DNA of 64,000 bases from NCBI RefSeq assembly GCF_055900595.2, contig NZ_CM148325.1; one strand, written 5' to 3'. The translations under genes and the position numbers were made by a program. Shown piece after piece: positions 33,998 through 55,278 of this stretch. Below the pieces are notes generated by a model. It saw nothing but the letters and a program-made list of their open reading frames with translations. It was not told the DNA's origin and did no database searches. The first letter of the stretch is position 1; every line of letters begins with the position of its first letter.

Positions 33998-34495
33998 ATG
34001 GATTTGTCACAGCTAACACCACGTCGTCCCTATCTGCTGCGTGCATTCTATGAGTGGTTGCTGGATAACCAGCTCACGCCGCACCTGGTGGTGGATGTGA
34101 CGCTCCCTGGCGTGCAGGTTCCTATGGAATATGCGCGTGACGGGCAAATCGTACTCAACATTGCGCCGCGTGCTGTCGGCAATCTGGAACTGGCGAATGA
34201 TGAGGTGCGCTTTAACGCGCGCTTTGGTGGCATTCCGCGTCAGGTTTCTGTGCCGCTGGCTGCCGTGCTGGCTATCTACGCCCGTGAAAATGGCGCAGGC
34301 ACGATGTTTGAACCTGAAGCTGCCTACGATGAAGATGCCAGCATCATGAATGATGAAGAGGCATCGGCAGACAACGAAACCGTTATGTCGGTTATTGATG
34401 GCGACAAGCCAGATCACGATGATGACACTCATCCTGACGATGAACCACCGCAGCCACCACGCGGTGGTCGACCGGCATTACGCGTTGTGAAGTAA
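33998..34495 (+). CDS. sspB: ClpXP adaptor SspB
   Basis: 165 aa with an acidic tail ending RGGRPALRVVK (ClpX-binding motif). Confidence 0.96.
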   Translation: MDLSQLTPRRPYLLRAFYEWLLDNQLTPHLVVDVTLPGVQVPMEYARDGQIVLNIAPRAVGNLELANDEVRFNARFGGIPRQVSVPLAAVLAIYARENGAGTMFEPEAAYDEDASIMNDEEASADNETVMSVIDGDKPDHDDDTHPDDEPPQPPRGGRPALRVVK

Positions 34496-34499
34496 AATG

Positions 34500-34528
34500 A
34501 AAACAGGCCCTGGCGGCCTGTTTTGTCT
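34500..34528. terminator. Bidirectional terminator between sspB (+) and dcuD (-)
   Basis: ACAGGCC-CTGGC-GGCCTGT hairpin followed by TTTTGTCTTC on the + strand and flanked by an A-rich run on the other side. Confidence 0.75.
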
Positions 34529-34538
34529 TCTTTATCGC

Positions 34539-35906
34539 TTAATAAAATAGCGTGATTGTGGCAATCATATTCACCACGAAACCGACTGCCATGGGGATCG
34601 CTGTCCGCTTCACCACTGCAAAAGGCGAAACACCTGCAATTCCTGATGTAACGACCACCACCGCAGTAATCGGCGAAACAGCGCGCGCTAGCGTCGTGGC
34701 AAAATGCATCGGCATAATCATTACAACCGCAGGTACATGTAGTCCGGCTGCGATATTCGGAATAAGACTGGCAAATGACATAAATGGCGCATTGCCTGAG
34801 CCCATCACAATGGCACAAATGGCAATGACCAGCGCCATAATAATCATCACGCCAATACCGCCCAGACCAGAATGCTCCGCACCCCTGATAACCGCATCGA
34901 CAGTGCCAATTGTCGTTAAGCCCTTCGCAAATATTTCACCCGCGACCACCAGCGTTACCACGTTGGCAAACTGCGTACCCATGCCGTCAAAAAACGCCTG
35001 CACATCGTCCATTGTTTCGCGCAAATTATGCTTGCGGAAAAACTCAACAAACATCGTCACCGTCAAACTCAGTAACATCACCACCACCAGATGCAGTTCT
35101 GACTGCATCAGTCCAGCGTGGGCGAGGAACAGCGAGCCGAGCATCAGGATTAACGGCATCACCGGTAAAATGGCGTAATAAAGCGGTGGGACATTATCGA
35201 GAGCTTTTTGCTCCGCCTGCTCGTGATTGATATTTTTATCTTTTTTGTCAAAAGCGCGTTGCACGAAAAAGTGAGAGATCGCTACCGAGATAATGACGCA
35301 AGAGGCGACCGGAAGCTGGTAGTGGAAGAAGTAAGTGGCAATTTTCATTCCTGCCACCTGGGCCGCAAAAATAGAGTTCGTTTCCAGAATCCCCCACTCA
35401 ATGGACATCGTGGTTGCGATAACTGCCACCGCAGAGAGTCGACTTACTCCCAGACTCACCAGTGTCGGAAATAAGGTGACCATCAGCAACATACCCAGAC
35501 CGGAGGCGCTGGTAATAAACTGCGCCATGATTTGGCCGATGACGTAAGTTGCCGACAGAATAATATACGGCGAGCGAATGAGTTTTAACGGGCGGCTTAA
35601 CAAGCTCACCATCGCCCGACTGGCTCCTATGCGCTCCATGTAGCGGGCATACCCGCCCACCGCCATAATCGACAACCCTAACCCGGCAATGCGGTTGGAC
35701 AGCATGCGCAGGATTTCATTATAAATATCGACGATCAAGTAGCCGCTGCTTTGGGTGGGATCGAGTACTCCACCGAACCCTAACCAGACACCGCACATCA
35801 TCAGGAAGATACCTGCGGCAGCCAGCACCACTTGAGGTTTGTAGTTTTTCAGGATCAAATAGCCCATCGTCATTAATACGATGACAGATATAATTATGCC
35901 GAACAT
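34539..35906 (-). CDS. dcuD: Anaerobic C4-dicarboxylate transporter DcuD (DcuC family)
   Basis: 455 aa from [37 protein letters not shown]...; polytopic membrane protein. Confidence 0.9.
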
Positions 35907-36284
35907 TGTTGAACTCCGTGTCAAAAGAAAACGGTCAATCCCATAAACGGCAGATTGAAAACAGTGATGTTATATTTTTTGCAAGGCTATTTATGGTGTT
36001 GGTGTCGTATTTTTTAATTCTGGATGAGGCAATTTTTCATTATAAAATATGCATTTATGATTATTTTGTAAGAACATATTCGTAATATTCATAATGCTTG
36101 TGAATAGTCTTATGAATAATTCATTCAGGATGTTTTATCGGCGTTACACTAATTTTCGCAATAGTTAATTATTACGTTAATTATGATAATAATGAGACAC
36201 AAAGAGAAAAAACCGCCATTTCCCCCTACTTTCAATCCTGTGATAGGATGTCACTGATGATGTTAATCACACTGACCTTACAGA

Positions 36285-37076
36285 ATGGGCCTTATGAACG
36301 CATTTGATTCGCAAACCGAAGATTCTTCACCTGCAATTGGTCGCAACTTGCGTAGCCGCCCGCTGGCGCGTAAGAAACTCTCCGAAATGGTGGAAGAAGA
36401 GCTGGAACAGATGATCCGCCGCCGTGAATTTGGCGAAGGTGAACAATTACCGTCTGAACGCGAACTGATGGCGTTCTTTAACGTCGGGCGTCCTTCTGTG
36501 CGCGAAGCGCTGGCAGCGTTAAAACGCAAAGGTCTGGTGCAAATAAACAACGGCGAACGTGCCCGCGTCTCGCGTCCTTCAGCGGACACCATCATCGGCG
36601 AGCTTTCCGGCATGGCGAAAGATTTCCTTTCTCATCCTGGCGGAATTGCCCATTTCGAACAATTACGTCTGTTCTTTGAATCCAGCCTGGTGCGCTATGC
36701 GGCTGAACACGCCACCGATGAGCAAATCGATTTGCTGGCAAAAGCACTGGAAATCAACAGTCAGTCGCTTGATAACAACGCGGCATTCATTCGTTCAGAC
36801 GTTGATTTCCACCGCGTGCTGGCGGAGATCCCCGGTAACCCAATCTTCATGGCGATCCATGTTGCCCTGCTCGATTGGCTGATCGCCGCGCGCCCAACGG
36901 TAGCTGATCAGGCTCTGCATGAGCATAACAACGTTAGCTATCAACAGCATATTGCGATCGTTGACGCGATCCGTCGTCATGATCCTGACGAAGCCGATCG
37001 CGCGTTGCAATCGCATCTCAACAGCGTCTCTGCTACCTGGCACGCCTTCGGTCAGACCACCAACAAAAAGAAATAA
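36285..37076 (+). CDS. nanR: Sialic acid regulon repressor NanR (GntR/FadR family)
   Basis: 263 aa with an N-terminal GntR helix-turn-helix. It lies immediately upstream of the nan operator and nanA. Confidence 0.93.
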
Positions 37077-37139
37077 TGCCACTTTAGTGAAGCAGATCGC
37101 ATTATAAGCTTTCTGTATGGGGTGTTGCTTAATTGATCT

Positions 37140-37162
37140 GGTATAACAGGTATAAAGGTATA
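37140..37162 (+). promoter_or_regulatory. NanR operator: three direct GGTATA repeats of the nanA promoter region
   Basis: GGTATAACAGGTATAAAGGTATA, i.e. GGTATA three times at 11-bp spacing, the known NanR binding repeat. Confidence 0.8.
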
Positions 37163-37176
37163 TCGTTTATCAGACA

Positions 37177-37185
37177 AGCATCACT
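37177..37185. repeat. IS10 target-site duplication, left copy
   Basis: AGCATCACT immediately outside the IS10 outside end; identical to the 9 bp at 38515-38523. Confidence 0.9.
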
Positions 37186-37230
37186 CTGATGAATCCCCTA
37201 ATGATTTTGGTAAAAATCATTAAGTTAAGG

Positions 37231-37300
37231 TGGATACACATCTTGTCATATGATCAAATGGTTTCGCCAAAAATCAATAATCAGACAACAAAATGTGCGA
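37231..37300 (-). ncRNA. IS10 antisense RNA-OUT (from pOUT); position inferred from the canonical IS10 map
   Basis: In canonical IS10, pOUT fires outward from about element position 115 and RNA-OUT ends near position 46. These are mapped onto the window by offset; no independent signal was checked. A dam GATC site at the pIN -10 region (CATATGATCAAATGG) is present. Confidence 0.45.
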
Positions 37301-38501
37301 ACTCGATATTTTACACGACTCTCTTTACCAATTCTGCCCCGAATTACACTTAAAACGACTCAACAGCTTAACGTTGGCTTGCCACGCCTTACTTGACTGT
37401 AAAACTCTCACTCTTACCGAACTTGGCCGTAACCTGCCAACCAAAGCGAGAACAAAACATAACATCAAACGAATCGACCGATTGTTAGGTAATCGTCACC
37501 TCCACAAAGAGCGACTCGCTGTATACCGTTGGCATGCTAGCTTTATCTGTTCGGGCAATACGATGCCCATTGTACTTGTTGACTGGTCTGATATCCGTGA
37601 GCAAAAACGGCTTATGGTATTGCGAGCTTCAGTCGCACTACACGGTCGTTCTGTTACTCTTTATGAGAAAGCGTTCCCGCTTTCAGAGCAATGTTCAAAG
37701 AAAGCTCATGACCAATTTCTAGCCGACCTTGCGAGCATTCTACCGAGTAACACCACACCGCTCATTGTCAGTGATGCTGGCTTTAAAGTGCCATGGTATA
37801 AATCCGTTGAGAAGCTGGGTTGGTACTGGTTAAGTCGAGTAAGAGGAAAAGTACAATATGCAGACCTAGGAGCGGAAAACTGGAAACCTATCAGCAACTT
37901 ACATGATATGTCATCTAGTCACTCAAAGACTTTAGGCTATAAGAGGCTGACTAAAAGCAATCCAATCTCATGCCAAATTCTATTGTATAAATCTCGCTCT
38001 AAAGGCCGAAAAAATCAGCGCTCGACACGGACTCATTGTCACCACCCGTCACCTAAAATCTACTCAGCGTCGGCAAAGGAGCCATGGATTCTAGCAACTA
38101 ACTTACCTGTTGAAATTCGAACACCCAAACAACTTGTTAATATCTATTCGAAGCGAATGCAGATTGAAGAAACCTTCCGAGACTTGAAAAGTCCTGCCTA
38201 CGGACTAGGCCTACGCCATAGCCGAACGAGCAGCTCAGAGCGTTTTGATATCATGCTGCTAATCGCCCTGATGCTTCAACTAACATGTTGGCTTGCGGGC
38301 GTTCATGCTCAGAAACAAGGTTGGGACAAGCACTTCCAGGCTAACACAGTCAGAAATCGAAACGTACTCTCAACAGTTCGCTTAGGCATGGAAGTTTTGC
38401 GGCATTCTGGCTACACAATAACAAGGGAAGACTCACTCGTGGCTGCAACCCTGCTTACTCAAAATCTATTCACACATGGTTACGTTTTGGGGAAATTATG
38501 A
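37293..38501 (+). CDS. IS10 transposase
   Basis: 402 aa, [151 protein letters not shown]..., recognised as the IS10/Tn10 transposase. Full length with no frameshift. Confidence 0.97.
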
Positions 38502-38514
38502 GGGGATCTCTCAG

Positions 38515-38523
38515 AGCATCACT
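38515..38523. repeat. IS10 target-site duplication, right copy
   Basis: AGCATCACT, identical to 37177-37185. Confidence 0.9.
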
Positions 38524-38535
38524 TCAGAGGTATTT

Positions 38536-39429
38536 ATGGCAACGAATTTACGTGGCGTAATGGCCGCACTCCTGACTCCTTTTGATCAACAACAAGCACT
38601 GGATAAAGCGAGTCTGCGTCGCCTGGTTCAGTTCAATATTCAGCAGGGCATCGACGGTTTATACGTGGGTGGTTCTACCGGCGAAGCCTTTGTACAAAGC
38701 CTTTCCGAGCGTGAACAGGTACTGGAAATCGTCGCCGAAGAGGCGAAAGGCAAGATTAAACTCATCGCCCACGTCGGTTGCGTCAGCACTGCTGAAAGCC
38801 AACAACTTGCGGCATCGGCTAAACGTTATGGCTTCGATGCCGTCTCCGCTGTCACGCCGTTCTACTATCCTTTCAGCTTTGAAGAACACTGCGATCACTA
38901 TCGGGCAATTATTGATTCGGCGGATGGTTTGCCGATGGTGGTGTACAACATTCCGGCGTTAAGCGGCGTTAAACTGACCCTGGATCAGATTAACACTCTG
39001 GTTAAGTTGCCTGGTGTCGGCGCGCTGAAACAGACCTCTGGCGATCTCTATCAGATGGAGCAGATCCGTCGTGAACATCCGGATCTGGTGCTCTATAACG
39101 GTTACGACGAAATCTTTGCTTCTGGTTTGTTGGCGGGCGCTGATGGTGGTATCGGCAGTACTTACAACATCATGGGCTGGCGTTATCAGGGTATCGTGAA
39201 GGCGCTGAAAGAAGGCGATATCCAGACCGCGCAGAAGCTGCAAACCGAATGTAATAAAGTCATTGATTTACTGATCAAAACGGGCGTATTCCGCGGCCTG
39301 AAAACGGTCCTGCACTATATGGATGTCGTTTCTGTGCCGCTGTGCCGCAAACCGTTTGGTCCGGTCGATGAAAAATATCTGCCAGAACTGAAGGCGCTAG
39401 CCCAGCAGTTGATGCAAGAGCGCGGGTGA
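38536..39429 (+). CDS. nanA: N-acetylneuraminate lyase
   Basis: 297 aa from [52 protein letters not shown].... The six-frame ORF's extra 20 N-terminal codons run into the IS10 inside end. Confidence 0.96.
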
Positions 39430-39537
39430 GTTGTTTCCCCTCGCTCGCCCCTACCGGGTGAGGGGAAATAAACGCATCTGTACCCTACAATTTTTATACC
39501 AAAGCGTGTGGGCATCGCCCACCGCGGGAGACTCACA

Positions 39538-41028
39538 ATGAGTACTACAACCCAGAATATCCCGTGGTATCGCCATCTCAACCGCGCACAATGGCGCGCA
39601 TTTTCCGCTGCCTGGTTGGGATATCTGCTTGACGGTTTTGATTTCGTTTTAATCGCCCTGGTACTCACCGAAGTACAAGGTGAATTCGGGCTGACGACGG
39701 TACAGGCGGCAAGTCTGATCTCCGCAGCCTTTATCTCTCGCTGGTTCGGCGGCCTGATGCTTGGCGCTATGGGCGACCGCTACGGGCGTCGTCTGGCAAT
39801 GGTTACCAGTATCGTTCTCTTCTCGGCCGGGACGCTGGCCTGCGGCTTTGCGCCAGGCTACATCACCATGTTTATTGCTCGTCTGGTCATCGGCATGGGG
39901 ATGGCGGGAGAATACGGCTCCAGCGCCACCTATGTCATTGAAAGCTGGCCAAAACATCTGCGTAACAAAGCCAGTGGCTTTCTGATTTCCGGCTTCTCGG
40001 TGGGTGCCGTCGTTGCCGCTCAGGTCTACAGCCTGGTGGTTCCGGTCTGGGGCTGGCGAGCGCTGTTCTTTATCGGCATTTTGCCAATCATCTTTGCTCT
40101 CTGGCTGCGTAAAAACATTCCGGAAGCGGAAGACTGGAAAGAGAAACACGCAGGTAAAGCACCAGTACGCACGATGGTAGACATTCTTTACCGTGGTGAA
40201 CATCGCATTGCCAATATCGTAATGACGCTGGCGGCGGCCACTGCGCTGTGGTTCTGCTTCGCTGGTAACCTGCAAAATGCCGCAATCGTCGCTGTTCTCG
40301 GGCTGTTATGTGCCGCAATCTTTATCAGCTTTATGGTTCAGAGTACGGGCAAACGCTGGCCAACGGGCGTAATGCTGATGGTGGTTGTGTTATTTGCTTT
40401 CCTCTACTCATGGCCGATTCAGGCACTGCTGCCAACGTATCTGAAAACCGATCTTGCTTATGACCCGCATACTGTCGCCAATGTGCTGTTCTTTAGTGGC
40501 TTTGGGGCGGCTGTGGGTTGCTGTGTCGGCGGCTTCCTCGGTGACTGGCTGGGAACCCGCAAAGCGTACGTTTGTAGCCTGCTGGCCTCGCAACTGCTGA
40601 TTATTCCGGTATTTGCGATTGGTGGCGCAAACGTCTGGGTGCTCGGTTTGTTACTGTTCTTCCAGCAAATGCTTGGACAAGGGATCGCCGGGATCTTACC
40701 GAAACTGATTGGCGGTTATTTCGATACCGACCAGCGTGCAGCGGGCCTGGGCTTTACCTACAACGTTGGCGCATTGGGCGGCGCACTGGCCCCAATCCTC
40801 GGCGCGTTGATCGCTCAACGTCTGGATCTGGGTACTGCGCTGGCATCGCTTTCGTTTAGCCTGACGTTCGTGGTGATCCTGCTGATTGGGCTGGATATGC
40901 CTTCTCGCGTTCAGCGTTGGTTGCGCCCGGAAGCGTTGCGTACTCATGACGCTATCGACGGCAAACCATTTAGCGGTGCCGTGCCGTTTGGCAGCGCTAA
41001 AAACGATTTAGTCAAAACCAAAAGTTAA
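39538..41028 (+). CDS. nanT: Sialic acid:H+ symporter NanT (MFS)
   Basis: 496 aa from [36 protein letters not shown].... Confidence 0.95.
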
Positions 41029-41074
41029 TCCTGTTGCCCGGTCTTCTACCGGGCCTTTCGCTAAGGGAAGATGT

Positions 41075-41760
41075 ATGTCGTTACTTGCACAACTGGATCA
41101 AAAAATCGCTGCTAACGGTGGCCTGATTGTCTCCTGCCAGCCGGTTCCGGACAGCCCACTCGATAAACCTGAAATCGTCGCCGCCATGGCATTAGCGGCA
41201 GAGCAGGCGGGAGCGGTTGCCATTCGTATTGAAGGTGTGGCAAATCTGCAAGCCACGCGTGCGGTGGTGAGCGTGCCAATTATCGGGATTGTCAAACGCG
41301 ATCTGGAGGATTCTCCGGTACGCATCACGGCATATATTGAAGATGTCGATGCGCTGGCGCAGGCAGGCGCGGATATCATCGCGATTGACGGCACCGACCG
41401 ACCGCGTCCGGTGCCTGTTGAAACGCTACTGGCACGTATCCACCATCACGGTTTACTGGCGATGACCGACTGCTCAACGCCGGAAGACGGCCTGGCATGC
41501 CAAAAGCTGGGAGCCGAAATTATTGGCACTACGCTTTCTGGCTATACCACACCTGAAACGCCAGAAGAGCCGGATCTGGCGCTGGTGAAAACGTTGAGCG
41601 ACGCCGGATGTCGGGTGATTGCCGAAGGGCGTTACAACACGCCTGCTCAGGCGGCGGATGCGATGCGCCACGGCGCATGGGCGGTGACGGTCGGTTCTGC
41701 TATCACACGTCTTGAACACATTTGCCAGTGGTACAACACAGCGATGAAAAAGGCGGTGCT

Positions 41761-41764
<4 letters not shown>
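41075..41764 (+). CDS. nanE: N-acetylmannosamine-6-phosphate 2-epimerase
   Basis: 229 aa, [30 protein letters not shown].... Confidence 0.95.
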
Positions 41765-43097
<1,333 letters not shown>

Positions 43098-43116
43098 AAC
43101 TTAGTTCGTTTTAAAG

Positions 43117-43141
43117 ATTCTGCAGACACTGTCTGCAGAAT
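43117..43141. repeat. Perfect palindrome ATTCTGCAGAC-ACT-GTCTGCAGAAT between the converging yhcH and yhcG; probable bidirectional terminator hairpin
   Basis: 11-bp perfect arms with a 3-nt loop. Same core (CAGAC-N3-GTCTG) as the three palindromes inside yhcG. Confidence 0.7.
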
Positions 43142-43156
43142 TCGAAACCGCTGAAA

Positions 43157-44284
43157 TTAACGGCGTCTATAGCCTTCCTCTAGCACCGCCTGTGTTCGAA
43201 CGAGTTCATCCGCGAGTCGTTTTTCATCAGGTAGTTGCATCTTATATTCGCTCGCCAGAACGGTGTTAGGCAAACCAGCCAGTGCATAATGCGCTTCGCC
43301 GGCTCCTTTCTCTGCACAGAGAACCAGACCGATGGGCGGATTTTCATCCGGTAGTGTCCAGTGCTCTTTGGCGTAGTTGAGATACATATTCATCTGTCCG
43401 GCATCGCTATAGCTGAATTTGCCCACTTTTAGATCGACGATTAGCAGGCAGCGTAAACGGCGGTGGAAAAACAGCAGATCGACACGAAACCAGTTGTCAT
43501 CAATGCGTAACCTTCGCTGCCGACCAACAAAGGCAAAATCATCCCCAAGTTCCAGCATGAAATCCATCAGGTGGTTGATCAGCGCCTCCTCAAAATCGGA
43601 TTCTGAGTATTCATCTTTCAATTCCAAAAATTCGAGCACAAAGGGATCGCGTATCGCCTGTTGCGGAAGAATATGCGTCTCGGCAGGGGCGTGTTGTTGC
43701 AGCATGGCTGATTTGTCATATGACAGTAGTGTCCGCTCATAAAATTGGGTCGCAATTTGCCGCTCTAGCTGGCGGACAGACCAACCACAGCGGAGCGCCT
43801 CTTTTTCATAAAAGCTGCGGGCGTCAGCGTTTTTAACGGAAAGTAGACGGACGTAGGTGGACCAGGGCAGTGGGAAGGATTTGGCAGACAGCGTCTGCCA
43901 AATCTTTGCCGATGGGAATTCTGCAGACGGTGTCTGCGGAATTCCCAATGGTGTTAATTCGCCAGACACTGTCTGGCGAATTTCAACATGTTGAAAAAAG
44001 AGGTAAAAAAGCCTCATTTGGCGTAAGTTTTTTGCAGAGAACCCACGCTTATACCTTAGACTTAAATCCTTTGATAGTCGCTTGATTAGCTGCGCACCAT
44101 ACGCAGCTCTGGCCTCACCACCTTGTTCAAATTCGACAATCCGTCGGCCAATTTCCCAGTATGTCGCGGTCATCAGCGCGTTAACGCTACGTACCGTTTC
44201 CGTTCGGGCGCTATCGACCAGATGAATAATGCCGTCGTGGATTTGCTGGTAGCCTGCTGTGGTTCCTTCTGAGAGCGATTCCAT
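43157..44284 (-). CDS. yhcG: YhcG, DUF1016/PD-(D/E)XK nuclease-family protein
   Basis: 375 aa. A C-terminal PD-(D/E)XK-like region (..VDLLFFHRRLRCLLIVDLKVGKF..) is present. Confidence 0.85.
   Translation of the reverse strand: MESLSEGTTAGYQQIHDGIIHLVDSARTETVRSVNALMTATYWEIGRRIVEFEQGGEARAAYGAQLIKRLSKDLSLRYKRGFSAKNLRQMRLFYLFFQHVEIRQTVSGELTPLGIPQTPSAEFPSAKIWQTLSAKSFPLPWSTYVRLLSVKNADARSFYEKEALRCGWSVRQLERQIATQFYERTLLSYDKSAMLQQHAPAETHILPQQAIRDPFVLEFLELKDEYSESDFEEALINHLMDFMLELGDDFAFVGRQRRLRIDDNWFRVDLLFFHRRLRCLLIVDLKVGKFSYSDAGQMNMYLNYAKEHWTLPDENPPIGLVLCAEKGAGEAHYALAGLPNTVLASEYKMQLPDEKRLADELVRTQAVLEEGYRRR
43878..43904. repeat. Intragenic palindrome A inside yhcG (GATTTGGCAGAC-AGC-GTCTGCCAAATC)
   Basis: Perfect 12-bp inverted arms around a 3-nt loop. 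Confidence 0.8.
43914..43946. repeat. Intragenic palindrome B inside yhcG (GGGAATTCTGCAGAC-GGT-GTCTGCGGAATTCCC)
   Basis: 15-bp inverted arms with one mismatch. Confidence 0.8.
43956..43982. repeat. Intragenic palindrome C inside yhcG (AATTCGCCAGAC-ACT-GTCTGGCGAATT)
   Basis: Perfect 12-bp inverted arms. Confidence 0.8.
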
Positions 44285-44467
44285 TATCTTTCCCTTTATA
44301 TGGCGCAGTGTTGAATAATGGAATCAGCTATACGCCGGGCATCTGCCGGTAACAATCCAGATGTGCGTATTACATTGGTTTTCTTAAGATTATGCGAGGC
44401 GCTTTCCAGAAAGAAAGGAGAATTTCAGCGCCGACTCTTTTCTGAGGAGGCGGCGCTGGGACAGAGC

Positions 44468-45898
<1,431 letters not shown>

Positions 45899-48800
45899 TT
45901 ACTGCGCCTGCACGCGCAACTCTGCTGCGCTACGACTACGGTGACCCAGCAGTGCTTTTACATCACTGGACTTCGGTTTAACCAGCGCAAATTTCGTGGC
46001 GAAGGTTGACCAGTTAGCCAGAATCTCTTCACCACGCTGGGAACCGGTATGCTGAACATGCTCGGTGATAAGACCACGCAGATGCTCTTCATGGATCGCC
46101 AGGGAGTCAACGCTTAAGACCTCGACCAGTTCCGGGTTAACGCGTTTGCGGAAATCGCCGCTTTCATCGAGAACGTAAGCGAAGCCGCCGGTCATGCCCG
46201 CGCCGAAGTTAACGCCGGTTTTACCCAGAATACAGACAATACCGCCCGTCATATATTCACAGCCGTTGTCGCCAATGCCTTCTACCACGGTGATAGCACC
46301 GGAATTACGCACGCCGAAACGTTCACCCGCGCGGCCTGCGGCATACAGACGACCACCGGTCGCGCCATACAGGCAGGTATTGCCGATAATGCTTGCTTCA
46401 TGGCTGCGGAAGGCTGAGCCAACCGGAGGACGAATGGCGATTAAGCCGCCCGCCATGCCTTTACCGACATAGTCGTTGGCATCACCGGTCAGGTACAGTT
46501 CCACGCCGCCCGCGTTCCACACGCCGAAGCTCTGGCCTGCGGTGCCGTTGAAGTACGCTTTAATCGGATCGGCTGCCAGCCTCTGATCGCCGTGCGTCTG
46601 GGCGATATAGCCCGAAAGCGATGCACCCACGGAACGGTCGGTGTTGCGAATATCGAACCAGAAGGTTTTGCTCTGACGCTCATCGACAAACGGTTTCGCC
46701 TGTTGCAGCAACTGCGCGTTTAGCAGGCCATTATCAAACGGCGGGTTGTTTTCGGTGCAGTAGAGCGCCTTACCTGGATGCGGCTCAGCGGTCTCCAGCA
46801 GGCGAGACAGTTCCAGCTTCTGCTGTTTGGCGGTGAAACCGTCCAGCTCTTTGAGCAGGTCGGTACGGCCAATCAGGTCAACCAGACGGGTCACGCCCAG
46901 TTGCGCCATCAGCTCACGGGTTTCGCGGGCGATAAATTCAAAGTAGTTGGTCACTTTGAACGGCAAACCGTGATAGTGGTTCTTACGCAGTTTGTCATCC
47001 TGAGTTGCCACGCCCGTCGCGCAGTTGTTCAGGTGGCAAATACGCAGATATTTACAGCCCAGCGCCACCATCGGGCCAGTACCGAAGCCGAAGCTTTCTG
47101 CGCCGAGAATCGCCGCTTTGATGATATCGACACCTGTTTTCAGGCCGCCATCAACCTGCAAACGAATTTTATGACGTAAACCGTTGGCAACCAGCGCCTG
47201 TTGGGTTTCCACCAGGCCGAGTTCCCACGGACAGCCTGCGTATTTCACCGATGAAAGCGGACTTGCGCCGGTGCCGCCGTCATAGCCTGCGATGGTGATT
47301 AAATCGGCATAAGCTTTCGCTACACCTGTGGCGATGGTACCAACGCCCGGTTCGGACACCAGCTTCACGGAGATCATCGCTTTCGGGTTAACCTGCTTGA
47401 GGTCGAAAATGAGCTGCGCTAAGTCCTCGATAGAGTAGATATCGTGGTGCGGCGGCGGGGAGATCAGCGTCACTCCGGGCACCGAATAGCGCAGTTTGGC
47501 AATGTAAGGAGTGACTTTATCACCCGGCAACTGACCGCCTTCGCCCGGCTTCGCGCCCTGGGCGACTTTAATCTGAATGACGTCAGCATTGACCAGATAC
47601 GCCGGAGTAACACCGAAGCGACCGGACGCCACCTGCTTGATGCGTGAGACTTTGTTGGTACCGTAGCGCGCCGGATCTTCACCCCCTTCACCGGAGTTCG
47701 AGTTACCGCCGATGCTGTTCATCGCTTCCGCCAGCGCCTCGTGGGCTTCCGGGCTTAATGCGCCGATAGACATCGCAGCAGTATCGAAGCGTTTAAACAG
47801 TTCGCTTGCCGGTTCAACATCAGCAATGTTGACCGCGTTTTCACCCGGCGTAATCGCCAGCAGATCGCGCAGCGTGGTTGCCGGACGTTCATTAACCAGC
47901 TTCGCGTATTCCTGATAGTCGCTATACTCGCCGCTCTGTACCGCCTGTTGCAGCGTGCGCACCACGTCCGGGTTGTAGGCGTGGTATTCGCCACCGTGCA
48001 CATATTTCAACAGGCCGCCCTGGCTGATGGGCTTGCGCGCCAGCCAGGCACGTTTCGACAGATTCAGCAGATCCTGCTGGAAGTCTTCAAAGCTTGCCCC
48101 ACCAATGCGGCTGACCGCCCCCTGGAAGCACAGGCCCACTACATCATCGTGCAGACCGACCGCTTCGAACAGTTTCGAGCAGCGGTAAGACGCGATGGTG
48201 GAGATGCCCATTTTGGACATGATTTTGTACAAGCCTTTGTTGATGCCGTTACGGTAGTTGAGCATCACGGTACGATAATCTTTGGCAATCGCGTGGGTGT
48301 CTACCAGGCGGCCCAGCGTTTCATAGGCCAGGTACGGATAAATAGCCGTCGCGCCGAAGCCCAGCAACACGGCGAAGTGGTGCGGGTCGCGGGCGCTGGC
48401 GGTTTCGACGATGATATTGGCATCGCAACGCAGGCTTTGATCGACCAGACGAGTCTGGATCGCGCCAACCGCCATCGGAGCCGGAACCGGCAGGCGATCT
48501 TTAGCGATATTCCGGTCAGAAAGCACCAGCAGCACGGTGCCGCTACGCACCATCTGTTCTGCTTTGTCGCACAGCTCTTTGACCGTCGCTTCGAGCGTGG
48601 TTTTAGTGACGTCAAAGGTGATATCCAGTGTATTTGCGCGGTAGTGCTCCTCTTTCATCGTCGTGAGCTGTTTGAAATCGGAGTAGAGCAGAATCGGCGA
48701 TTTAAAGCTTAAACGGTGCGCCTGGCCTTCTGCTTCACAGAAGACGTTCATTTCACGCCCGATGCTGGTGGCGAGCGACATAACATGCGCTTCACGCAGT

Positions 48801-50452
48801 GGGTCGATTGGCGGGTTGGTGACCTGCGCAAACTGCTGGCGGAAGTAGTCGTAAATAATGCGCGGCTGGCTGGAGAGCACGGCGAATGGGGTATCATCGC
48901 CCATCGAACCGACGGCTTCCTGACCGTTTTCACCCAGTACGCGAATTACGGAGTCCAGCTCTTCCGCGCTGTAGTTAAACTGTTTCTGGTAGCTGGCAAG
49001 TGTGTCGTCGTCCAGTTCGCGGCTACCCACTTCTTCATCGGGCAGATCTTCAAACGGTACCAGACGGCGGACGTTTTTCTCCATCCACTCTTTATATGGA
49101 TGGCGGCTTTTCAGATCGTCATCGGTTTCTGCCGAGTGCAGAATACGCCCACTGCGGGTGTCGATAACCATCAGTTCGCCTGGCCCCACTCGGCCTTTTT
49201 CGACCACTTCGTCAGGCTGATAATCCCAGATGCCCACTTCAGAGGCGCAGGTGATGAGCTTATCTTTGGTGATGACGTAGCGCGCCGGACGCAGACCGTT
49301 ACGGTCGAGGTTACAGGCGGCAAAACGACCATCGGACATCACGATCCCCGCCGGGCCATCCCACGGCTCCATATGCATGGAGTTAAAGTCAAAGAAGGCA
49401 CGCAGTTCCGGGTCCATATCCGGGTTGTTCTGCCAGGCGGGTGGTACTAACAGACGCATGGCGCGGATGATATCCATCCCGCCCGCCAGCAGCAGTTCCA
49501 GCATGTTATCCATGGAACTGGAGTCAGAGCCGGTTTCGTTGACGAACGGCGCGGCGTCGTGCAGGTCAGGGATCAGCGGTGTCTGGAATTTATAAGTACG
49601 GGCGCGCGCCCATTGGCGGTTACCGGTGATGGTGTTGATTTCACCGTTATGCGCCAGGTAGCGGAACGGCTGCGCCAGCGGCCAGCGCGGTACGGTGTTA
49701 GTGGAGAAGCGCTGGTGGAACAGGCAGATGGCCGATTCCAGACGCAGGTCCGCGAGGTCCAGGTAGAAGCGCGGCAGATCCGCCGGCATACACAGACCTT
49801 TATAGATGTTCACCAGATTCGACAGGCTACAGACGTAGAAGTCTTTGTCAGCTTCGAGACGCTTTTCAATGCGGCGGCGGGCGATAAACAGACGGCGCTC
49901 CATATCGCGCGGACGCCAACCTGCCGGGGCGTTCACAAAAATTTGCTCAATGCGTGGCAGAGAGGAGAGGGCGATTTCACCCAGCACGCCTTCGTTAGTG
50001 GGGACATCACGCCAGCCGACAATCGACAACGTTTCGCGTTGCAGCTCTTCTTCAACGATGCGGCGTGCGGTCGCGGCGAGTTCAGGATCTTTATTCAGGA
50101 AAAGCATCCCGACGGCGTAGTTTTTCGCTAAACGCCAGCCTCGCTCCTGCGCAACAATGCGAAAAAAGCGATCCGGTTTTTGTAACAGCAAGCCGCAACC
50201 GTCACCGGTTTTACCATCGGCGAGAATCGCGCCACGGTGCTGCATGCGGGCCAGTGCGTGTATTGCAGTACGCACTACCTTGTGGCTAGGTTCGCCTTCT
50301 ATGTGGGCGATCAGGCCGAAACCACAGTTATCCCTCTCAAGGGATTTATCGTACAACATATCGTGAACCTCCCCCAGGCTCTGCGGGAACCCCACTTCCG
50401 AACCGCTGCGCACGGGCACAGAAAGAGCGTGGCGACGGGGTTTGCGTTTCAT
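45899..50452 (-). CDS. gltB: Glutamate synthase (NADPH) large subunit
   Basis: 1517 aa from MKRKPRRHALSVPVRSGSEVGFPQSLGEVHDMLYDKSLERDNCGFGLIAHIEG.... Start chosen to match the K-12 precursor length as I recall it. Confidence 0.95.
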   Translation of the reverse strand: MKRKPRRHALSVPVRSGSEVGFPQSLGEVHDMLYDKSLERDNCGFGLIAHIEGEPSHKVVRTAIHALARMQHRGAILADGKTGDGCGLLLQKPDRFFRIVAQERGWRLAKNYAVGMLFLNKDPELAATARRIVEEELQRETLSIVGWRDVPTNEGVLGEIALSSLPRIEQIFVNAPAGWRPRDMERRLFIARRRIEKRLEADKDFYVCSLSNLVNIYKGLCMPADLPRFYLDLADLRLESAICLFHQRFSTNTVPRWPLAQPFRYLAHNGEINTITGNRQWARARTYKFQTPLIPDLHDAAPFVNETGSDSSSMDNMLELLLAGGMDIIRAMRLLVPPAWQNNPDMDPELRAFFDFNSMHMEPWDGPAGIVMSDGRFAACNLDRNGLRPARYVITKDKLITCASEVGIWDYQPDEVVEKGRVGPGELMVIDTRSGRILHSAETDDDLKSRHPYKEWMEKNVRRLVPFEDLPDEEVGSRELDDDTLASYQKQFNYSAEELDSVIRVLGENGQEAVGSMGDDTPFAVLSSQPRIIYDYFRQQFAQVTNPPIDPLREAHVMSLATSIGREMNVFCEAEGQAHRLSFKSPILLYSDFKQLTTMKEEHYRANTLDITFDVTKTTLEATVKELCDKAEQMVRSGTVLLVLSDRNIAKDRLPVPAPMAVGAIQTRLVDQSLRCDANIIVETASARDPHHFAVLLGFGATAIYPYLAYETLGRLVDTHAIAKDYRTVMLNYRNGINKGLYKIMSKMGISTIASYRCSKLFEAVGLHDDVVGLCFQGAVSRIGGASFEDFQQDLLNLSKRAWLARKPISQGGLLKYVHGGEYHAYNPDVVRTLQQAVQSGEYSDYQEYAKLVNERPATTLRDLLAITPGENAVNIADVEPASELFKRFDTAAMSIGALSPEAHEALAEAMNSIGGNSNSGEGGEDPARYGTNKVSRIKQVASGRFGVTPAYLVNADVIQIKVAQGAKPGEGGQLPGDKVTPYIAKLRYSVPGVTLISPPPHHDIYSIEDLAQLIFDLKQVNPKAMISVKLVSEPGVGTIATGVAKAYADLITIAGYDGGTGASPLSSVKYAGCPWELGLVETQQALVANGLRHKIRLQVDGGLKTGVDIIKAAILGAESFGFGTGPMVALGCKYLRICHLNNCATGVATQDDKLRKNHYHGLPFKVTNYFEFIARETRELMAQLGVTRLVDLIGRTDLLKELDGFTAKQQKLELSRLLETAEPHPGKALYCTENNPPFDNGLLNAQLLQQAKPFVDERQSKTFWFDIRNTDRSVGASLSGYIAQTHGDQRLAADPIKAYFNGTAGQSFGVWNAGGVELYLTGDANDYVGKGMAGGLIAIRPPVGSAFRSHEASIIGNTCLYGATGGRLYAAGRAGERFGVRNSGAITVVEGIGDNGCEYMTGGIVCILGKTGVNFGAGMTGGFAYVLDESGDFRKRVNPELVEVLSVDSLAIHEEHLRGLITEHVQHTGSQRGEEILANWSTFATKFALVKPKSSDVKALLGHRSRSAAELRVQAQ

Positions 50453-51033
50453 ACGCGCGCCTCGCATTCGCCCCCTTGTTGTCCTTTTCGCATCGATTAA
50501 TACGGTGAAGAGGGGATCTCAATTACTGCATAAATATGATGAGCAGGCTGCTCATCCAGAAAGCTTCCAGCGGATTTCCAACTTATCGGGAAAGCTGATA
50601 CAGGTCAAATGGCAAGCTTATTGGTACAGAAATGTGCTTTAGCGCAAAATTCTTTATTAATTTATTGAAATTAAAAAGGATTTGTTAATTAAGTTGAAAA
50701 GAGGCGTCGTTAGGGAAACAGTCAATTCCTGACTGTCATAAAGGCGTGTTAACCCTTATCCTGCCTTGAACTGACGAGAAAGGCAGTATTTTATACTGCA
50801 TTAATTGGTAATGACGTTTCATGCTACTGTTTTTGCCTAAAATCCATAAGGAGATAAAAAAATCTGACACAAGATAAGCAAAAGTGATTTATGTGATTAT
50901 GAATGAAATTTCGGTAATTTTGATTGATTATGCAATTGATAAAAGCAGGCTGGGACGATTGATCCAGGTCATCGCCGAATTGAGCTAAAAATGGCAGGCT
51001 TTGGCCTCTTTTCAAGGCGCGGTCTATCAGATT

Positions 51034-51963
51034 ATGCAGTTACAGAAATTAGTCAATATGTTTGGTGGTGATCTCACCCGTCGTTATGGGCAAAAGGTGC
51101 ATAAGCTGACGCTGCACGGCGGTTTTAGCTGCCCTAACCGTGACGGAACCATCGGGCGAGGTGGCTGCACATTCTGTAATGTTGCCTCGTTTGCCGATGA
51201 AGCGCAGCAGCATCATTCCATTGCCGAGCAACTGGCGCACCAGGCGAATTTAGTTAACCGCGCTAAACGCTATCTGGCCTACTTTCAGGCGTATACCAGC
51301 ACCTTTGCCGAAGTTCAGGTGCTGCGTTCTATGTATCAGCAGGCGGTGAGCCAGGCCAATATTGTCGGTTTGTGTGTTGGTACCCGCCCGGACTGCGTGC
51401 CGGATGCGGTGCTGGATCTGCTTTGCGAATATAAGGACCAGGGCTACGAAGTGTGGCTGGAGCTGGGGCTACAAACCGCCCACGACAAAACGCTGCATCG
51501 CATCAATCGCGGTCATGATTTTGCCTGCTATCAGCGCACGACGCAGCTGGCGCGTGAGCGCGGGCTGAAGGTGTGTTCTCACTTAATTGTCGGCCTGCCT
51601 GGCGAAGGGCAGGCTGAATGTTTGCAAACGCTGGAGCGAGTGGTTGAAACCGGCGTGGACGGCATAAAGCTGCATCCGCTACATATAGTAAAAGGCAGCA
51701 TTATGGCGAAAGCCTGGGAAGCGGGGCGTTTGAACGGTATTGAACTGGACGATTACACGCTCACTGCCGGAGAAATGATTCGCCATACGCCACCGGAAGT
51801 GATCTACCACCGCATTTCCGCCAGCGCCCGTCGCCCGACGCTGCTTGCTCCGCTGTGGTGCGAAAATCGATGGACGGGAATGGTCGAGCTGGATCGCTAT
51901 CTGAATGAACATGGCGTACAGGGATCGGCGCTGGGACGTCCGTGGCTACCTCCAACGGCGTAG
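51034..51963 (+). CDS. yhcC: Radical SAM protein YhcC
   Basis: 309 aa from MQLQKLVNMFGGDLTRRYGQK..., with Cys-rich motifs (CPNRDGTIGRGGCTFC). Confidence 0.88.
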   Translation: MQLQKLVNMFGGDLTRRYGQKVHKLTLHGGFSCPNRDGTIGRGGCTFCNVASFADEAQQHHSIAEQLAHQANLVNRAKRYLAYFQAYTSTFAEVQVLRSMYQQAVSQANIVGLCVGTRPDCVPDAVLDLLCEYKDQGYEVWLELGLQTAHDKTLHRINRGHDFACYQRTTQLARERGLKVCSHLIVGLPGEGQAECLQTLERVVETGVDGIKLHPLHIVKGSIMAKAWEAGRLNGIELDDYTLTAGEMIRHTPPEVIYHRISASARRPTLLAPLWCENRWTGMVELDRYLNEHGVQGSALGRPWLPPTA

Positions 51964-52058
51964 GCCATTGAGGGGAATTCCGCATTTCTCACACAATTTA
52001 TAACGTAACTGTCAGAATTGGGTATTATTGGGGCAGGTTGTCGTGAAGGAATTCCCTA

Positions 52059-54395
52059 ATGAAGCAAATTCGTCTGCTGGCGCAGTATTATGTTGACCTG
52101 ATGATGAAGTTAGGTCTGGTGCGCTTCTCAATGTTGCTGGCGCTGGCCCTCGTCGTTCTTGCCATTGTTGTACAAATGGCAGTGACCATGGTGCTGCATG
52201 GTCAGGTCGAAAGCATTGATGTTATTCGTTCTATCTTCTTTGGTTTGCTGATTACGCCGTGGGCGGTCTACTTTCTATCGGTGGTCGTCGAGCAACTGGA
52301 GGAGTCACGACAACGTCTGTCACGGCTGGTGCAAAAACTGGAGGAGATGCGCGAGCGCGATTTGAGCCTCAACGTTCAGTTAAAAGATAATATTGCCCAG
52401 CTAAATCAGGAAATTGCCGTTCGTGAAAAAGCGGAAGCAGAACTGCAGGAAACCTTCGGCCAACTGAAAATTGAAATTAAAGAGCGCGAAGAGACACAAA
52501 TTCAGCTCGAGCAGCAATCCTCATTCTTACGTTCCTTCCTTGATGCTTCACCCGACCTGGTTTTTTATCGTAACGAAGATAAAGAGTTTTCCGGCTGTAA
52601 CCGCGCGATGGAGCTGCTGACCGGAAAAAGCGAAAAACAACTGGTTCACCTGAAACCTGCTGATGTTTACTCACCGGAAGCCGCTGCGAAAGTCATTGAA
52701 ACCGATGAAAAAGTGTTCCGTCATAATGTGTCACTGACCTATGAGCAGTGGCTGGATTATCCCGACGGACGCAAAGCCTGCTTTGAAATCCGTAAAGTGC
52801 CGTACTACGACCGCGTGGGTAAACGTCACGGTTTGATGGGCTTTGGTCGTGACATTACCGAGCGTAAGCGGTATCAGGATGCACTTGAACGCGCCAGCCG
52901 CGACAAAACGACGTTTATTTCCACCATCAGTCACGAATTGCGTACACCGCTGAACGGTATCGTCGGCCTGAGTCGCATTCTGCTGGATACCGAACTCACC
53001 GCCGAGCAGGAAAAATATCTCAAAACCATCCATGTTTCTGCCGTCACGCTGGGGAATATCTTCAACGATATTATCGACATGGATAAGATGGAACGGCGCA
53101 AGGTCCAGCTTGATAATCAGCCGGTTGATTTCACCAGCTTCCTTGCCGATCTGGAAAATCTCTCCGCATTGCAGGCGCAACAGAAAGGATTGCGCTTTAA
53201 TCTGGAGCCGACGCTGCCATTACCGCATCAGGTCATTACCGACGGGACGCGTTTACGGCAGATCCTGTGGAATCTCATCAGTAACGCCGTCAAATTCACC
53301 CAGCAAGGCCAGGTTACCGTGCGCGTGCGCTACGATGAAGGCGATATGCTGCATTTTGAAGTGGAAGACTCTGGTATCGGCATTCCGCAGGATGAGCTGG
53401 ATAAAATCTTCGCCATGTATTACCAGGTGAAAGACAGTCACGGCGGTAAGCCCGCCACTGGCACCGGTATTGGTCTGGCCGTTTCTCGTCGTCTGGCGAA
53501 AAATATGGGCGGCGATATTACGGTTACCAGCGAACAGGGCAAAGGTTCCACCTTTACGTTGACGATCCACGCACCGTCGGTAGCAGAAGAGGTTGATGAT
53601 GCGTTTGATGAAGACGATATGCCTTTACCGGCGCTGAATGTGCTGCTGGTGGAAGACATTGAACTGAACGTGATTGTCGCACGCTCTGTGCTGGAAAAAT
53701 TAGGTAACAGCGTTGATGTCGCCATGACCGGCAAGACGGCGCTGGAGATGTTTAAACCGGGCGAATACGACCTGGTGTTGCTGGATATTCAGTTGCCAGA
53801 TATGACCGGGCTGGATATCTCTCGTGAACTGACGAAGCGATATCCGCGCGAGGATTTACCACCGCTGGTAGCCTTAACCGCTAACGTGCTGAAAGACAAA
53901 CAAGAGTACCTCAATGCTGGAATGGATGATGTGCTGAGTAAGCCGCTTTCTGTTCCAGCGCTAACCGCGATGATCAAGAAATTCTGGGATACCCAGGATG
54001 ATGAGGAGAGCACGGTGACGACAGAAGAGAACAGTAAATCAGAAGCATTGCTCGATATTCCCATGCTGGAACAGTATCTCGAACTTGTAGGACCGAAGCT
54101 GATTACCGACGGGTTAGCGGTGTTTGAGAAGATGATGCCGGGCTATGTGAGTGTACTGGAGTCGAACCTGACGGCGCAGGATAAAAAAGGCATCGTCGAG
54201 GAAGGGCATAAAATTAAAGGCGCGGCGGGTTCAGTGGGGTTACGCCATCTGCAACAGCTGGGTCAGCAAATTCAGTCTCCTGACCTTCCTGCGTGGGAAG
54301 ATAACGTCGGTGAATGGATTGAAGAGATGAAAGAAGAGTGGCGTCACGACGTAGACGTGTTGAAAGCGTGGGTGGCAAAAGCCACAAAAAAATGA
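52059..54395 (+). CDS. arcB: Aerobic respiration control sensor kinase ArcB (hybrid histidine kinase)
   Basis: 778 aa with transmembrane segments, PAS, HisKA (SHELRTPLN), HATPase, receiver and HPt domains. Confidence 0.96.
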   Translation: MKQIRLLAQYYVDLMMKLGLVRFSMLLALALVVLAIVVQMAVTMVLHGQVESIDVIRSIFFGLLITPWAVYFLSVVVEQLEESRQRLSRLVQKLEEMRERDLSLNVQLKDNIAQLNQEIAVREKAEAELQETFGQLKIEIKEREETQIQLEQQSSFLRSFLDASPDLVFYRNEDKEFSGCNRAMELLTGKSEKQLVHLKPADVYSPEAAAKVIETDEKVFRHNVSLTYEQWLDYPDGRKACFEIRKVPYYDRVGKRHGLMGFGRDITERKRYQDALERASRDKTTFISTISHELRTPLNGIVGLSRILLDTELTAEQEKYLKTIHVSAVTLGNIFNDIIDMDKMERRKVQLDNQPVDFTSFLADLENLSALQAQQKGLRFNLEPTLPLPHQVITDGTRLRQILWNLISNAVKFTQQGQVTVRVRYDEGDMLHFEVEDSGIGIPQDELDKIFAMYYQVKDSHGGKPATGTGIGLAVSRRLAKNMGGDITVTSEQGKGSTFTLTIHAPSVAEEVDDAFDEDDMPLPALNVLLVEDIELNVIVARSVLEKLGNSVDVAMTGKTALEMFKPGEYDLVLLDIQLPDMTGLDISRELTKRYPREDLPPLVALTANVLKDKQEYLNAGMDDVLSKPLSVPALTAMIKKFWDTQDDEESTVTTEENSKSEALLDIPMLEQYLELVGPKLITDGLAVFEKMMPGYVSVLESNLTAQDKKGIVEEGHKIKGAAGSVGLRHLQQLGQQIQSPDLPAWEDNVGEWIEEMKEEWRHDVDVLKAWVAKATKK

Positions 54396-54507
54396 CCCCG
54401 GCTAGACCGGGGTGCGCGAATACTGCGCCAACACCAGGGAAATCTTGGCTGCGCCGTAAATTTTTATGATGAGTTACAAGGGCACAGCACTTTTTTTCAG
54501 GCCGCAC
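54386..54507 (-). ncRNA. arcZ: sRNA ArcZ (RyhA/SraH), convergent with and overlapping the arcB 3' end
   Basis: The minus strand reads GTGCGGCCTGAAAAAAAGTGCTGTGCCCTTGTAACTCATCAT...GGCGCAGTATTCGCGCACCCCGGTCTAGCCGGGGTCATTTTTTT, matching the ArcZ sequence and its terminator as I recall them. Confidence 0.85.
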
Positions 54508-54624
54508 GCAGTTAAGATAGCAAAACTTAAATGATTTGTTACATGAATCAGTTAAATGTGTGATGCGTAGCATTTTTATTAAAAAAATTAATGTGTTTCA
54601 GTCAATTGCGAAAGGATGATCACA

Positions 54625-55278
54625 ATGAAGAAAATTGGCGTAATTCTGAGCGGATGCGGCGTCTATGACGGTTCTGAAATTCATGAAGCGGTGTTGACGT
54701 TGTTAGCTATTTCACGCAGTGGTGCGCAGGCGGTCTGCTTTGCACCGGATAAGCAGCAGGTTGATGTAATCAATCATTTAACTGGCGAAGCGATGCCGGA
54801 AACGCGCAATGTGCTGATTGAAGCGGCACGAATAACGCGCGGTGAAATCCGTCCTCTGGCTCAGGCCGATGCCGCTGAACTGGATGCGTTGATTGTGCCG
54901 GGGGGGTTTGGTGCGGCGAAGAATTTAAGCAACTTTGCCCGTCTGGGGAGTGAATGCACCGTTGAGCGTGAATTACAGGCGCTGGCGCAAGCGATGCATC
55001 AGGCCGGAAAACCGCTTGGTTTTATGTGTATTGCCCCGGCGATGCTGCCGAAAATTTTCGATTTCCCGCTGCGTTTGACCATCGGTACTGATATCGATAC
55101 CGCAGAAGTGCTGGAGGAGATGGGCGCGGAGCATGTGCCGTGTCCTGTCGATGATATCGTGGTTGATGAAGACAATAAGATTGTCACCACCCCGGCATAT
55201 ATGCTGGCGCAGAACATTGCAGAAGCGGCGAGCGGCATTGATAAGCTGGTTTCCCGCGTGCTGGTTCTGACTGAATGA
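54625..55278 (+). CDS. elbB: ElbB, DJ-1/PfpI-family glyoxalase-like protein
   Basis: 217 aa from [24 protein letters not shown].... Confidence 0.9.

Follow-up and report, generated by a model that had tools for sequence, protein, structure and literature searches.

Results

Gene order at the gltD–yhcG junction

The DNA analysed here, referred to as the window, is a single stretch of 64 kb. It carries gltB, gltD and yhcG in this order on the minus strand, followed by a convergent nan operon on the plus strand (Table 1). Both gltB and gltD are intact. The co-directional gltD and yhcG genes are separated by the 183 bp given in the original prediction, and the spacer contains no open reading frame of at least 60 amino acids. 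The GltD and YhcG proteins share 99% and 98% amino acid identity with their K-12 counterparts. In contrast, tblastn searches with K-12 GltF, YhcA, YhcD, YhcE and YhcF found no match within the 64-kb window, so that the predicted absence of gltF and the yhc fimbrial genes holds across this stretch. Of the genes that constitute a K-12-type yhc locus, namely an usher gene (PF00577), a PapD-like chaperone gene and DUF1120 subunit genes, none was found in the window by these searches. The locus instead has the two features that characterize the W allele, which are the gltD–yhcG spacing and a 53-bp segment containing the CAGCGCCG..CGGCGCTG hairpin.

Table 1. Positions of the features described in the text, in the window and in comparison loci.
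Feature	Locus	Coordinates	Strand	Details
gltB, glutamate synthase large subunit	window	45899..50359	-	ORF listed from 45899; annotated gltB of CP098223.1 (99.99%-identical genome) maps here
gltD, glutamate synthase small subunit	window	44468..45886	-	472 aa; TIGR01318 gltD family, E 1.6e-270
gltD–yhcG spacer, named W allele	window	44285..44467	-	exactly 183 bp
53-bp segment	window	44413..44465	-	without counterpart at either K-12 junction (blastn against K-12)
G+C-rich hairpin	window	44426..44458	-	starts 9 nt after gltD stop
Hairpin arm CAGCGCCG	window	44426-44433		pairs with CGGCGCTG
Hairpin arm CGGCGCTG	window	44451-44458		pairs with CAGCGCCG
yhcG upstream region	window	44285..44412	-	putative promoter and 5´UTR
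yhcG	window	43157..44284	-	375 aa; Pfam DUF1016_N (PF17761) and YhcG_C (PF06250)
yhcG palindrome r1, AATTCGCCAGAC-AGT-GTCTGGCGAATT	window	43956..43982		codons 101-110
yhcG palindrome r2, GGGAATTCCGCAGAC-ACC-GTCTGCAGAATTCCC	window	43914..43946		one mismatch
yhcG palindrome r3, GATTTGGCAGAC-GCT-GTCTGCCAAATC	window	43878..43904		codons 127-136; lies on the motif conserved throughout the family
Solo palindrome of the same family	window	43116..43142		between yhcG stop and nanQ stop; 16 nt after yhcG stop
nanQ (yhcH)	window	42633..43097	+	convergent on yhcG; last nan operon gene; NF040884, E 2.2e-70
IS10 between nanR and nanA	window	37186-38514		1329 bp; outside end left, inside end right
IS10 transposase, IS4-family	window	37293-38501	+	402 aa
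IS10 9-bp target duplication AGCATCACT	window	37177-37185 and 38515-38523		
K-12 region upstream of yhcG	L001	13699-13827		compared with window 44285-44412
Empty-allele loci (ST131, Nissle)	L003; L004	6099-6165; 13936-14002		one solo yhcG-type palindrome each
Truncated yhcG and unrelated DNA (O104:H4 and others)	L005	4099-4975		
yhc-like clusters of Enterobacter asburiae and E. cloacae	L014; L015	11467-17543; 12009-15919		opposite strand to gltD
yhcG homologue neighbourhood	L095	1254-3595		
yhcG homologue neighbourhood	L096	1254-3589		
yhcG homologue neighbourhood	L098	1474-3595		
yhcG homologue neighbourhood	L105	236-2499		
yhcG homologue neighbourhood	L086	2702-4131		

The neighbouring nan operon carries an insertion of its own. 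An IS10 element, recognized by its length, its outside and inside terminal repeats, the 9-bp duplication and the transposase, lies in the nanA leader downstream of three GGTATA NanR boxes. The downstream duplication ends 12 nt before the nanA ATG (38536), and the sialic-acid operon is thereby cut off from its own promoter. IS10 is absent from CP098223.1, the nearest complete genome, which is otherwise 99.99% identical on the right of the element (38515-58000; 2 mismatches in 19.5 kb) and 99.43% identical on the left (30000-37185; 41 mismatches in 7.2 kb). The two sides look as if they meet at a recombination boundary at or near the IS10 insertion.

The hairpin downstream of gltD

The G+C-rich hairpin that had been predicted in the spacer was located within the 53-bp segment. 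It consists of an 8-bp stem with seven G–C pairs and a 17-nt loop, which contains an inner 3-bp helix, and is followed by the tail AAAUUCUCCUUUCUUUC. The hairpin occurs once in the 64-kb window when up to three mismatches are allowed, with 0 copies expected by chance, and its sequence is identical in E. albertii, in the Escherichia reference genome L007 and in O104:H4, all three of which have the 53-bp segment as well. A stable hairpin begins 9–14 nt past the gltD stop codon in each of the W, Salmonella, K-12 and ST131 alleles. The folding energies are −20.2 kcal/mol for the hairpin of the window and −20.5 kcal/mol for that of Salmonella, which differs in sequence and is equally placed; the palindromes at this position in K-12 and ST131 reach −22.6 and −24.5 kcal/mol.

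With regard to the features of an intrinsic terminator, the stem of the spacer hairpin is G+C-rich and the tail is U-rich, although it starts with AAA, and the loop exceeds the usual 3–8 nt. A promoter and terminator consensus scan of the spacer called nothing and did not flag the hairpin, and no Rfam family matches it. A dispersed palindrome of the REP/BIME type was considered and rejected, since the hairpin is present in a single copy in the window and at one place per E. coli genome and has no Rfam match. The hairpin probably forms the 3´ end of the gltBD transcript, either as a terminator that departs from the textbook intrinsic type or as a stabiliser, and the remaining ~128 bp of the spacer would then comprise the yhcG promoter and leader.

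Comparison with K-12

In the K-12 strain MG1655, gltB, gltD, yhcG, nanQ and the nan operon are arranged and oriented as in the window. Its full gene order is gltB-gltD-gltF-yhcA-yhcD-yhcE(IS5)-yhcF-yhcG, in agreement with the order given in the original prediction, and yhcG is thus not adjacent to gltD there. The gltD stop codon and the yhcG start codon of MG1655 are 7210 bp apart (6011 bp without IS5), and the interval in the window is 7.0 kb shorter. The prediction had offered a deletion of about 6 kb as one explanation, in which gltF-yhcADEF would have been taken recently from a K-12-like ancestor of this strain or its close lineage. The missing interval agrees with that reading, as does the presence of short palindromes at the locus, which can mediate deletions (see E. 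albertii below). The junction itself does not. By blastn, homology between the window and K-12 stops 2 nt past the gltD stop codon and restarts 129 nt ahead of the yhcG ATG, at a point 56 nt past the yhcF stop codon. Between these ends, the window holds the 53-bp hairpin segment, which has no counterpart in K-12 and therefore cannot be derived from K-12 sequence by a simple deletion.

The sequence upstream of yhcG also argues against a recent deletion. Over the ~130 bp preceding the gene, K-12 and the window are only ~76% identical, whereas the window and E. albertii are ~96% identical; part of this sequence is even kept in Salmonella (TTCTGGAAA...CTCG.A.AATC). The yhcG coding sequences of K-12 and the W alleles do not show the same divergence and are ~96–97% identical. 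This contrast of 76% with 96% suggests that the yhcG flank of K-12 was imported together with the island. In K-12, a divergent ncRNA, G0-10703, has been reported upstream of yhcG as "found in some strains" (PMC7967276), which fits the allele divergence observed in this region.

The K-12 island spans 5.9 kb without IS5 and has a G+C content of 43%, next to 57% for gltBD and 55% for the nan genes. It encodes a PapD-type chaperone (YhcA), an usher that matches PF00577 (YhcD), and GltF and YhcF, both of which belong to the Pfam family DUF1120. Because gltF shares this family with yhcF and is likewise low in G+C, it is more fittingly regarded as the opening gene of the fimbrial operon, carried as island cargo, than as the third gene of the glt operon, which is how it had been counted. 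GOGAT requires just gltB and gltD; since both are intact in the window, the absence of gltF is expected to have no effect on nitrogen assimilation. Goss and colleagues are said to have found in 2001 that gltF is dispensable.

In the literature, gltF-yhcADEF has been treated as one fimbrial operon (PMC8174762, PMC5216030), and yhc has been classified as a beta-class chaperone-usher locus that is found in phylogroup A strains only (PMC5216030). Wurpel et al. (2013; PMC3559732) described Yhc fimbriae as 'sporadic' and 'highly under-represented' and left undecided whether the locus is a remnant or an acquisition.

The junction in outgroup genomes

Species-representative genomes were scanned with GltD, which gave at least 80 loci; E. 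fergusonii and the cryptic Escherichia clades are not among the matches listed. E. albertii NBRC 107761 has the same spacer at ~96% identity, and the hairpin in it is identical. Beyond the spacer lies the 5´ part of yhcG, which, unlike in the window, has been shortened by an apparent palindrome-to-palindrome deletion. The Escherichia genome L007 has the order gltD-186 bp-yhcG-nanQ with the same spacer and hairpin, and the spacing that characterizes the W allele is ~183–186 bp. Salmonella Senftenberg carries gltB-gltD-208 bp-yhcG homologue (79% amino acid identity)-codBA, that is, yhcG again directly follows gltD, with codBA rather than nanQ on its far side. In several other Enterobacteriaceae, gltD is directly convergent on nanQ or nanK and fimbrial genes are absent. 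No gltF-yhcADEF genes were found in E. albertii, L007, Salmonella Senftenberg or the gltD-nanQ/nanK loci of these Enterobacteriaceae.

Because the gltD–yhcG junction is shared by E. albertii, L007 and Salmonella, it is, on this comparison of sequences, older than the divergence of E. coli and E. albertii, and probably also older than that from Salmonella. This distribution runs counter to the deletion of about 6 kb that had been proposed, and together with the prevalence of the junction within E. coli (below), the lack of a K-12 source for the 53-bp segment and the divergence upstream of yhcG, it makes a recent deletion in the lineage of this strain very improbable.

A yhc-like cluster of the beta chaperone-usher class lies immediately 3´ of gltD, on the opposite strand, in Enterobacter asburiae and E. 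cloacae. Its usher is 41–49% and its chaperone 47–59% identical in amino acid sequence to those of the E. coli island, with DUF1120 subunits also present, and GltD is 94% identical. This cluster speaks against an acquisition of the K-12 island to the extent that clusters of this kind may long have been associated with the site. On such a reading, a cluster already lay 3´ of gltD in the ancestor of the Enterobacteriaceae, was lost once before E. coli, E. albertii and Salmonella separated, and was kept or re-introduced only in phylogroup A, in line with the 'remnant' possibility raised by Wurpel et al. (2013; PMC3559732). However, the Enterobacter cluster is inverted and its proteins are far more diverged than GltD, the E. 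coli island is at least 99% identical among its carriers and has a foreign composition and diverged flanks, and gltD adjoins nanQ or other genes in most of the genera sampled. We therefore regard descent from an ancient cluster as improbable, if less so than a recent deletion. The Enterobacter cluster looks like an independent use of the same site and not like vertical descent, and the 3´ flank of gltD may be a recurrent landing site for chaperone-usher clusters.

Some records in the plasmid collection PLSDB are chromosomes or pieces of chromosomes (NZ_LN868944.1, NZ_CP141089.1 and NZ_CP134663.1). Examples are a 728-kb Salmonella 'plasmid 2', on which gltBD-yhcG-codBA are located, and two 4.9-Mb records from E. 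coli. Matches of chromosomal genes to plasmid collections need checking.

Allele frequencies in E. coli

Allele frequencies were determined in 5426 complete E. coli genomes. The W allele, detected at a coverage of at least 80% with a 231-bp probe that comprises the end of gltD, the hairpin segment and the yhcG upstream region, is present in 3139 genomes, and a 3-kb probe found full-length yhcG contiguous with gltD in 2543 of them. K-12 island DNA, from the gltD flank through yhcE, defines the K allele and occurs in 1293 genomes (1120 at a coverage of at least 80%), a count that is raised by laboratory derivatives. It is chromosomal in every case, and 1288 of the 1293 matches show at least 99% identity. 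An "empty" E allele, in which gltD and nanQ are 67 bp apart with neither the island nor yhcG between them, accounts for 947 genomes and is represented by ST131 and Nissle. The three classes add up to 5379 of the 5426 genomes and are thus nearly mutually exclusive, a partition from which the yhc island is predicted to be absent from the rest of this strain's genome as well.

The window's junction is accordingly the majority state of E. coli, with more than twice as many genomes as the K-12 island, which disagrees with the suggestion that the absence of the fimbrial genes is specific to a lineage; the event specific to a lineage is instead the presence of the island in phylogroup A / K-12. An assembly artefact, in which the island was collapsed or mis-joined, is scarcely credible, since the same junction recurs in thousands of complete genomes and the closed genome CP098223.1 matches the region with 99.99% identity over 19.5 kb. 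The locus as it stands in the window's own lineage is rare, with only 8–10 of the 5426 genomes at 99% identity or above.

The remaining W genomes include an allele, for example that of O104:H4, whose yhcG breaks off after codon ~135 and gives way to unrelated DNA. In O104:H4 and others, the cut falls exactly at palindrome r3 and is joined to ~470 bp of unrelated DNA. The 101-aa ORF that replaces the 3´ half of yhcG in O104:H4 is annotated 'transposase' and matches no Pfam or NCBIfam model.

The empty allele of ST131 and Nissle resembles the window in its flanking genes and in the absence of the fimbrial island. It differs in that yhcG is missing, one yhcG-type palindrome lies between the convergent genes, and the gltD-proximal flank is of the K-12 type. 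K-12 and the empty B2 allele share this flank (GCGAGGTAACAATG and a palindrome), the W allele lacks it, and the flank in Pseudocitrobacter resembles it. The history of the site is therefore more complex than one insertion into a W allele.

Palindromes at the yhcG locus

The yhcG gene of the window contains three tandem 39-bp (13-codon) units with one palindrome each, of the form ATT-NNN-CAGAC-NNN-GTCTG-NNN-AAT, and a solo palindrome of the same family follows its stop codon. K-12 and the empty ST131 allele have an extra copy 14 nt past the gltD stop codon, and Pseudocitrobacter has a copy after its gltD. No further copies of the yhcG-type palindrome were found elsewhere in E. coli genomes, nor in the flanks of the other loci that were read. 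A tblastn search for relics of yhcG around the solo palindromes found the palindromes alone, with a marginal extension in Pseudocitrobacter. Tandem Repeats Finder reported nothing in yhcG, in which the 39-bp units are too diverged outside the palindromes, and Rfam gave only a spurious mir-3913 match (E 0.34). A dispersed repeat family was rejected as the identity of these palindromes, because an E. coli genome has only about one such site outside yhcG; the number of 'places' in blast output is doubled, since a palindrome matches both strands.

Breakpoints at this locus fall on palindromes. The truncated yhcG of E. albertii ends in a hybrid palindrome, whose left arm derives from an internal copy and whose right arm derives from the downstream copy; the truncation in O104:H4 stops at r3; and the K-12 island starts right after a solo palindrome. 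These three cases fit palindrome-to-palindrome deletion or recombination, for which slippage, template switching or a recombinase would be candidate mechanisms.

The yhcG palindromes may tentatively be compared with palindromic repeats located within or next to genes, namely REP/BIME elements, Rickettsia palindromic elements and quasi-palindromes corrected by template switching. In common with these, they are short, perfect, hairpin-forming repeats, are tolerated in frame in a coding region and coincide with end points of deletions or rearrangements. Unlike these elements, however, the yhcG palindromes are not dispersed, accompany a single protein family in which they occupy the same codon position in different phyla, have covarying arms and match no Rfam family.

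A palindrome at one motif of DUF1016/YhcG genes

Twenty-five DUF1016/YhcG genes were compared, the products of which share 30–79% identity with the YhcG protein of the window. They were sampled from Gamma-, Beta- and Alphaproteobacteria, Acidobacteriota, Bacteroidota, Cyanobacteria, Actinomycetota and Deinococcota, and from one IMG/VR contig. In all 25 genes, the codons of one conserved motif form a perfect or near-perfect palindrome, with 11–15-bp arms and a 3-nt centre. On this sample, the palindrome is a hallmark of the DUF1016/YhcG family. In an unbiased whole-gene scan, the best palindrome with 12-bp arms was located at I-x-Q-T-x-S-x-x-L or I-G-Q-Q-P-V-G-Q-L, just N-terminal of (S/P)W(S/G)H. 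The site scores 9–12 of 12 pairs, and second-best sites elsewhere in the gene mostly score 8–10; in 17 of the 25 genes, the observed score was reached by at most 1 of 200 codon-order shuffles.

Across 28 aligned palindrome copies, 94.3% of the cells pair, compared with 20–45% when the partner is slid by 1–3 columns. Compensatory double changes were observed in 9 of the 12 pairs (71 cells), and the covariation score was reached by none of 500 shuffles. The core of the palindrome changes in concert, as CAGAC/GTCTG, GAGAC/GTCTC, TCGAC/GTCGA, GGATC/GATTC or CCAAC/GTTGG. Mismatches comprise 8 sense G.T, 9 sense A.C and 10 transversions, and the lack of strand bias argues for a feature at the DNA level over an mRNA hairpin. 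Recognition of one specific sequence by one homodimer is not favoured either, because r1 to r3 differ at the variable positions and each copy nevertheless keeps its own symmetry, which points to the pairing or the symmetry itself. Neither a publication nor an Rfam family that connects DUF1016/YhcG with a palindrome was found. A scan of viral contigs yielded only two yhcG relatives.

The YhcG protein and its gene neighbourhoods

YhcG matches PF17761 and PF06250 with 146.2 and 191.8 bits, where the gathering cut-offs are 32.8 and 32.5, and the PADLOC model PDC-S02 with an E value of 9.3e-136. These matches suggest that yhcG encodes a DUF1016 / PD-(D/E)XK nuclease and is a candidate anti-phage gene, PDC-S02 being a candidate defence system that is not validated. 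The AlphaFold model of YhcG has a mean pLDDT of 72.8, and repeats r1 and r2 (residues 103–125) are unstructured in it with pLDDT below 50. In its predicted fold, the nuclease domain is similar to those of NucS/EndoMS and Can2; no relative with a solved structure was found. Earlier sequence analysis placed this domain near Holliday-junction-resolvase-like nucleases (PMC1189080).

Homologues of yhcG occur in type I restriction–modification operons, between hsdM and hsdS, and in BREX loci, between pglX and pglZ. On plasmids, they often lie directly behind a tyrosine integrase gene, with which they seem to form a two-gene operon in which the stop and start codons overlap, and an HU-family gene often adjoins or overlaps them (neighbourhoods in Table 1).

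Discussion

The layout of the window is the most common one in Escherichia and very probably the ancestral one, from which nothing would have been lost, and K-12 (phylogroup A) would be derived by the acquisition of a beta-class chaperone-usher island. Acquisition is favoured by the junction conserved in outgroups, the foreign composition of the island, its near-identity among carriers and the diverged flank on its yhcG side. The ancestral order would have been gltB-gltD, the 183-bp spacer, yhcG and the convergent nan operon. The 53-bp hairpin segment would have been replaced in phylogroup A by a block low in G+C (~5.9 kb, or 7.1 kb including IS5), which comprises gltF-yhcADEF and its own flanks. 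Most likely, a diverged donor contributed this block through recombination, and the crossovers would have fallen within or beside gltD and at the beginning of yhcG.

We tentatively propose that the gltD–nanQ interval is a rearrangement hotspot owing to the palindrome of yhcG. The palindrome would be a selected, cis-acting cruciform or single-strand hairpin and a substrate of the family's own NucS/EndoMS-like nuclease or of neighbouring tyrosine recombinases and HU. The presence or absence of the island would be one outcome, and the solo copies at gltD and nanQ would be scars. As to what keeps the palindrome, our favoured guess is selection for a cruciform or hairpin on which the nuclease or a partner recombinase acts; as the neutral alternative, the palindrome may perpetuate itself by arm-to-arm template switching.

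The polymorphism at gltD–yhcG is real and ordinary, and has already been described as the sporadic yhc fimbriae of phylogroup A. The importance of the finding itself is small. It makes K-12 the exception at this locus, and it shows that outgroups are needed before a K-12 gene missing from another strain is taken for a deletion. On the question of remnant or acquisition that Wurpel et al. (2013; PMC3559732) left undecided, the evidence presented here favours acquisition. What could matter more is the palindrome, which is kept by compensatory change in a widespread, uncharacterised nuclease gene of defence islands and offers a concrete, testable handle on the function of DUF1016/YhcG.
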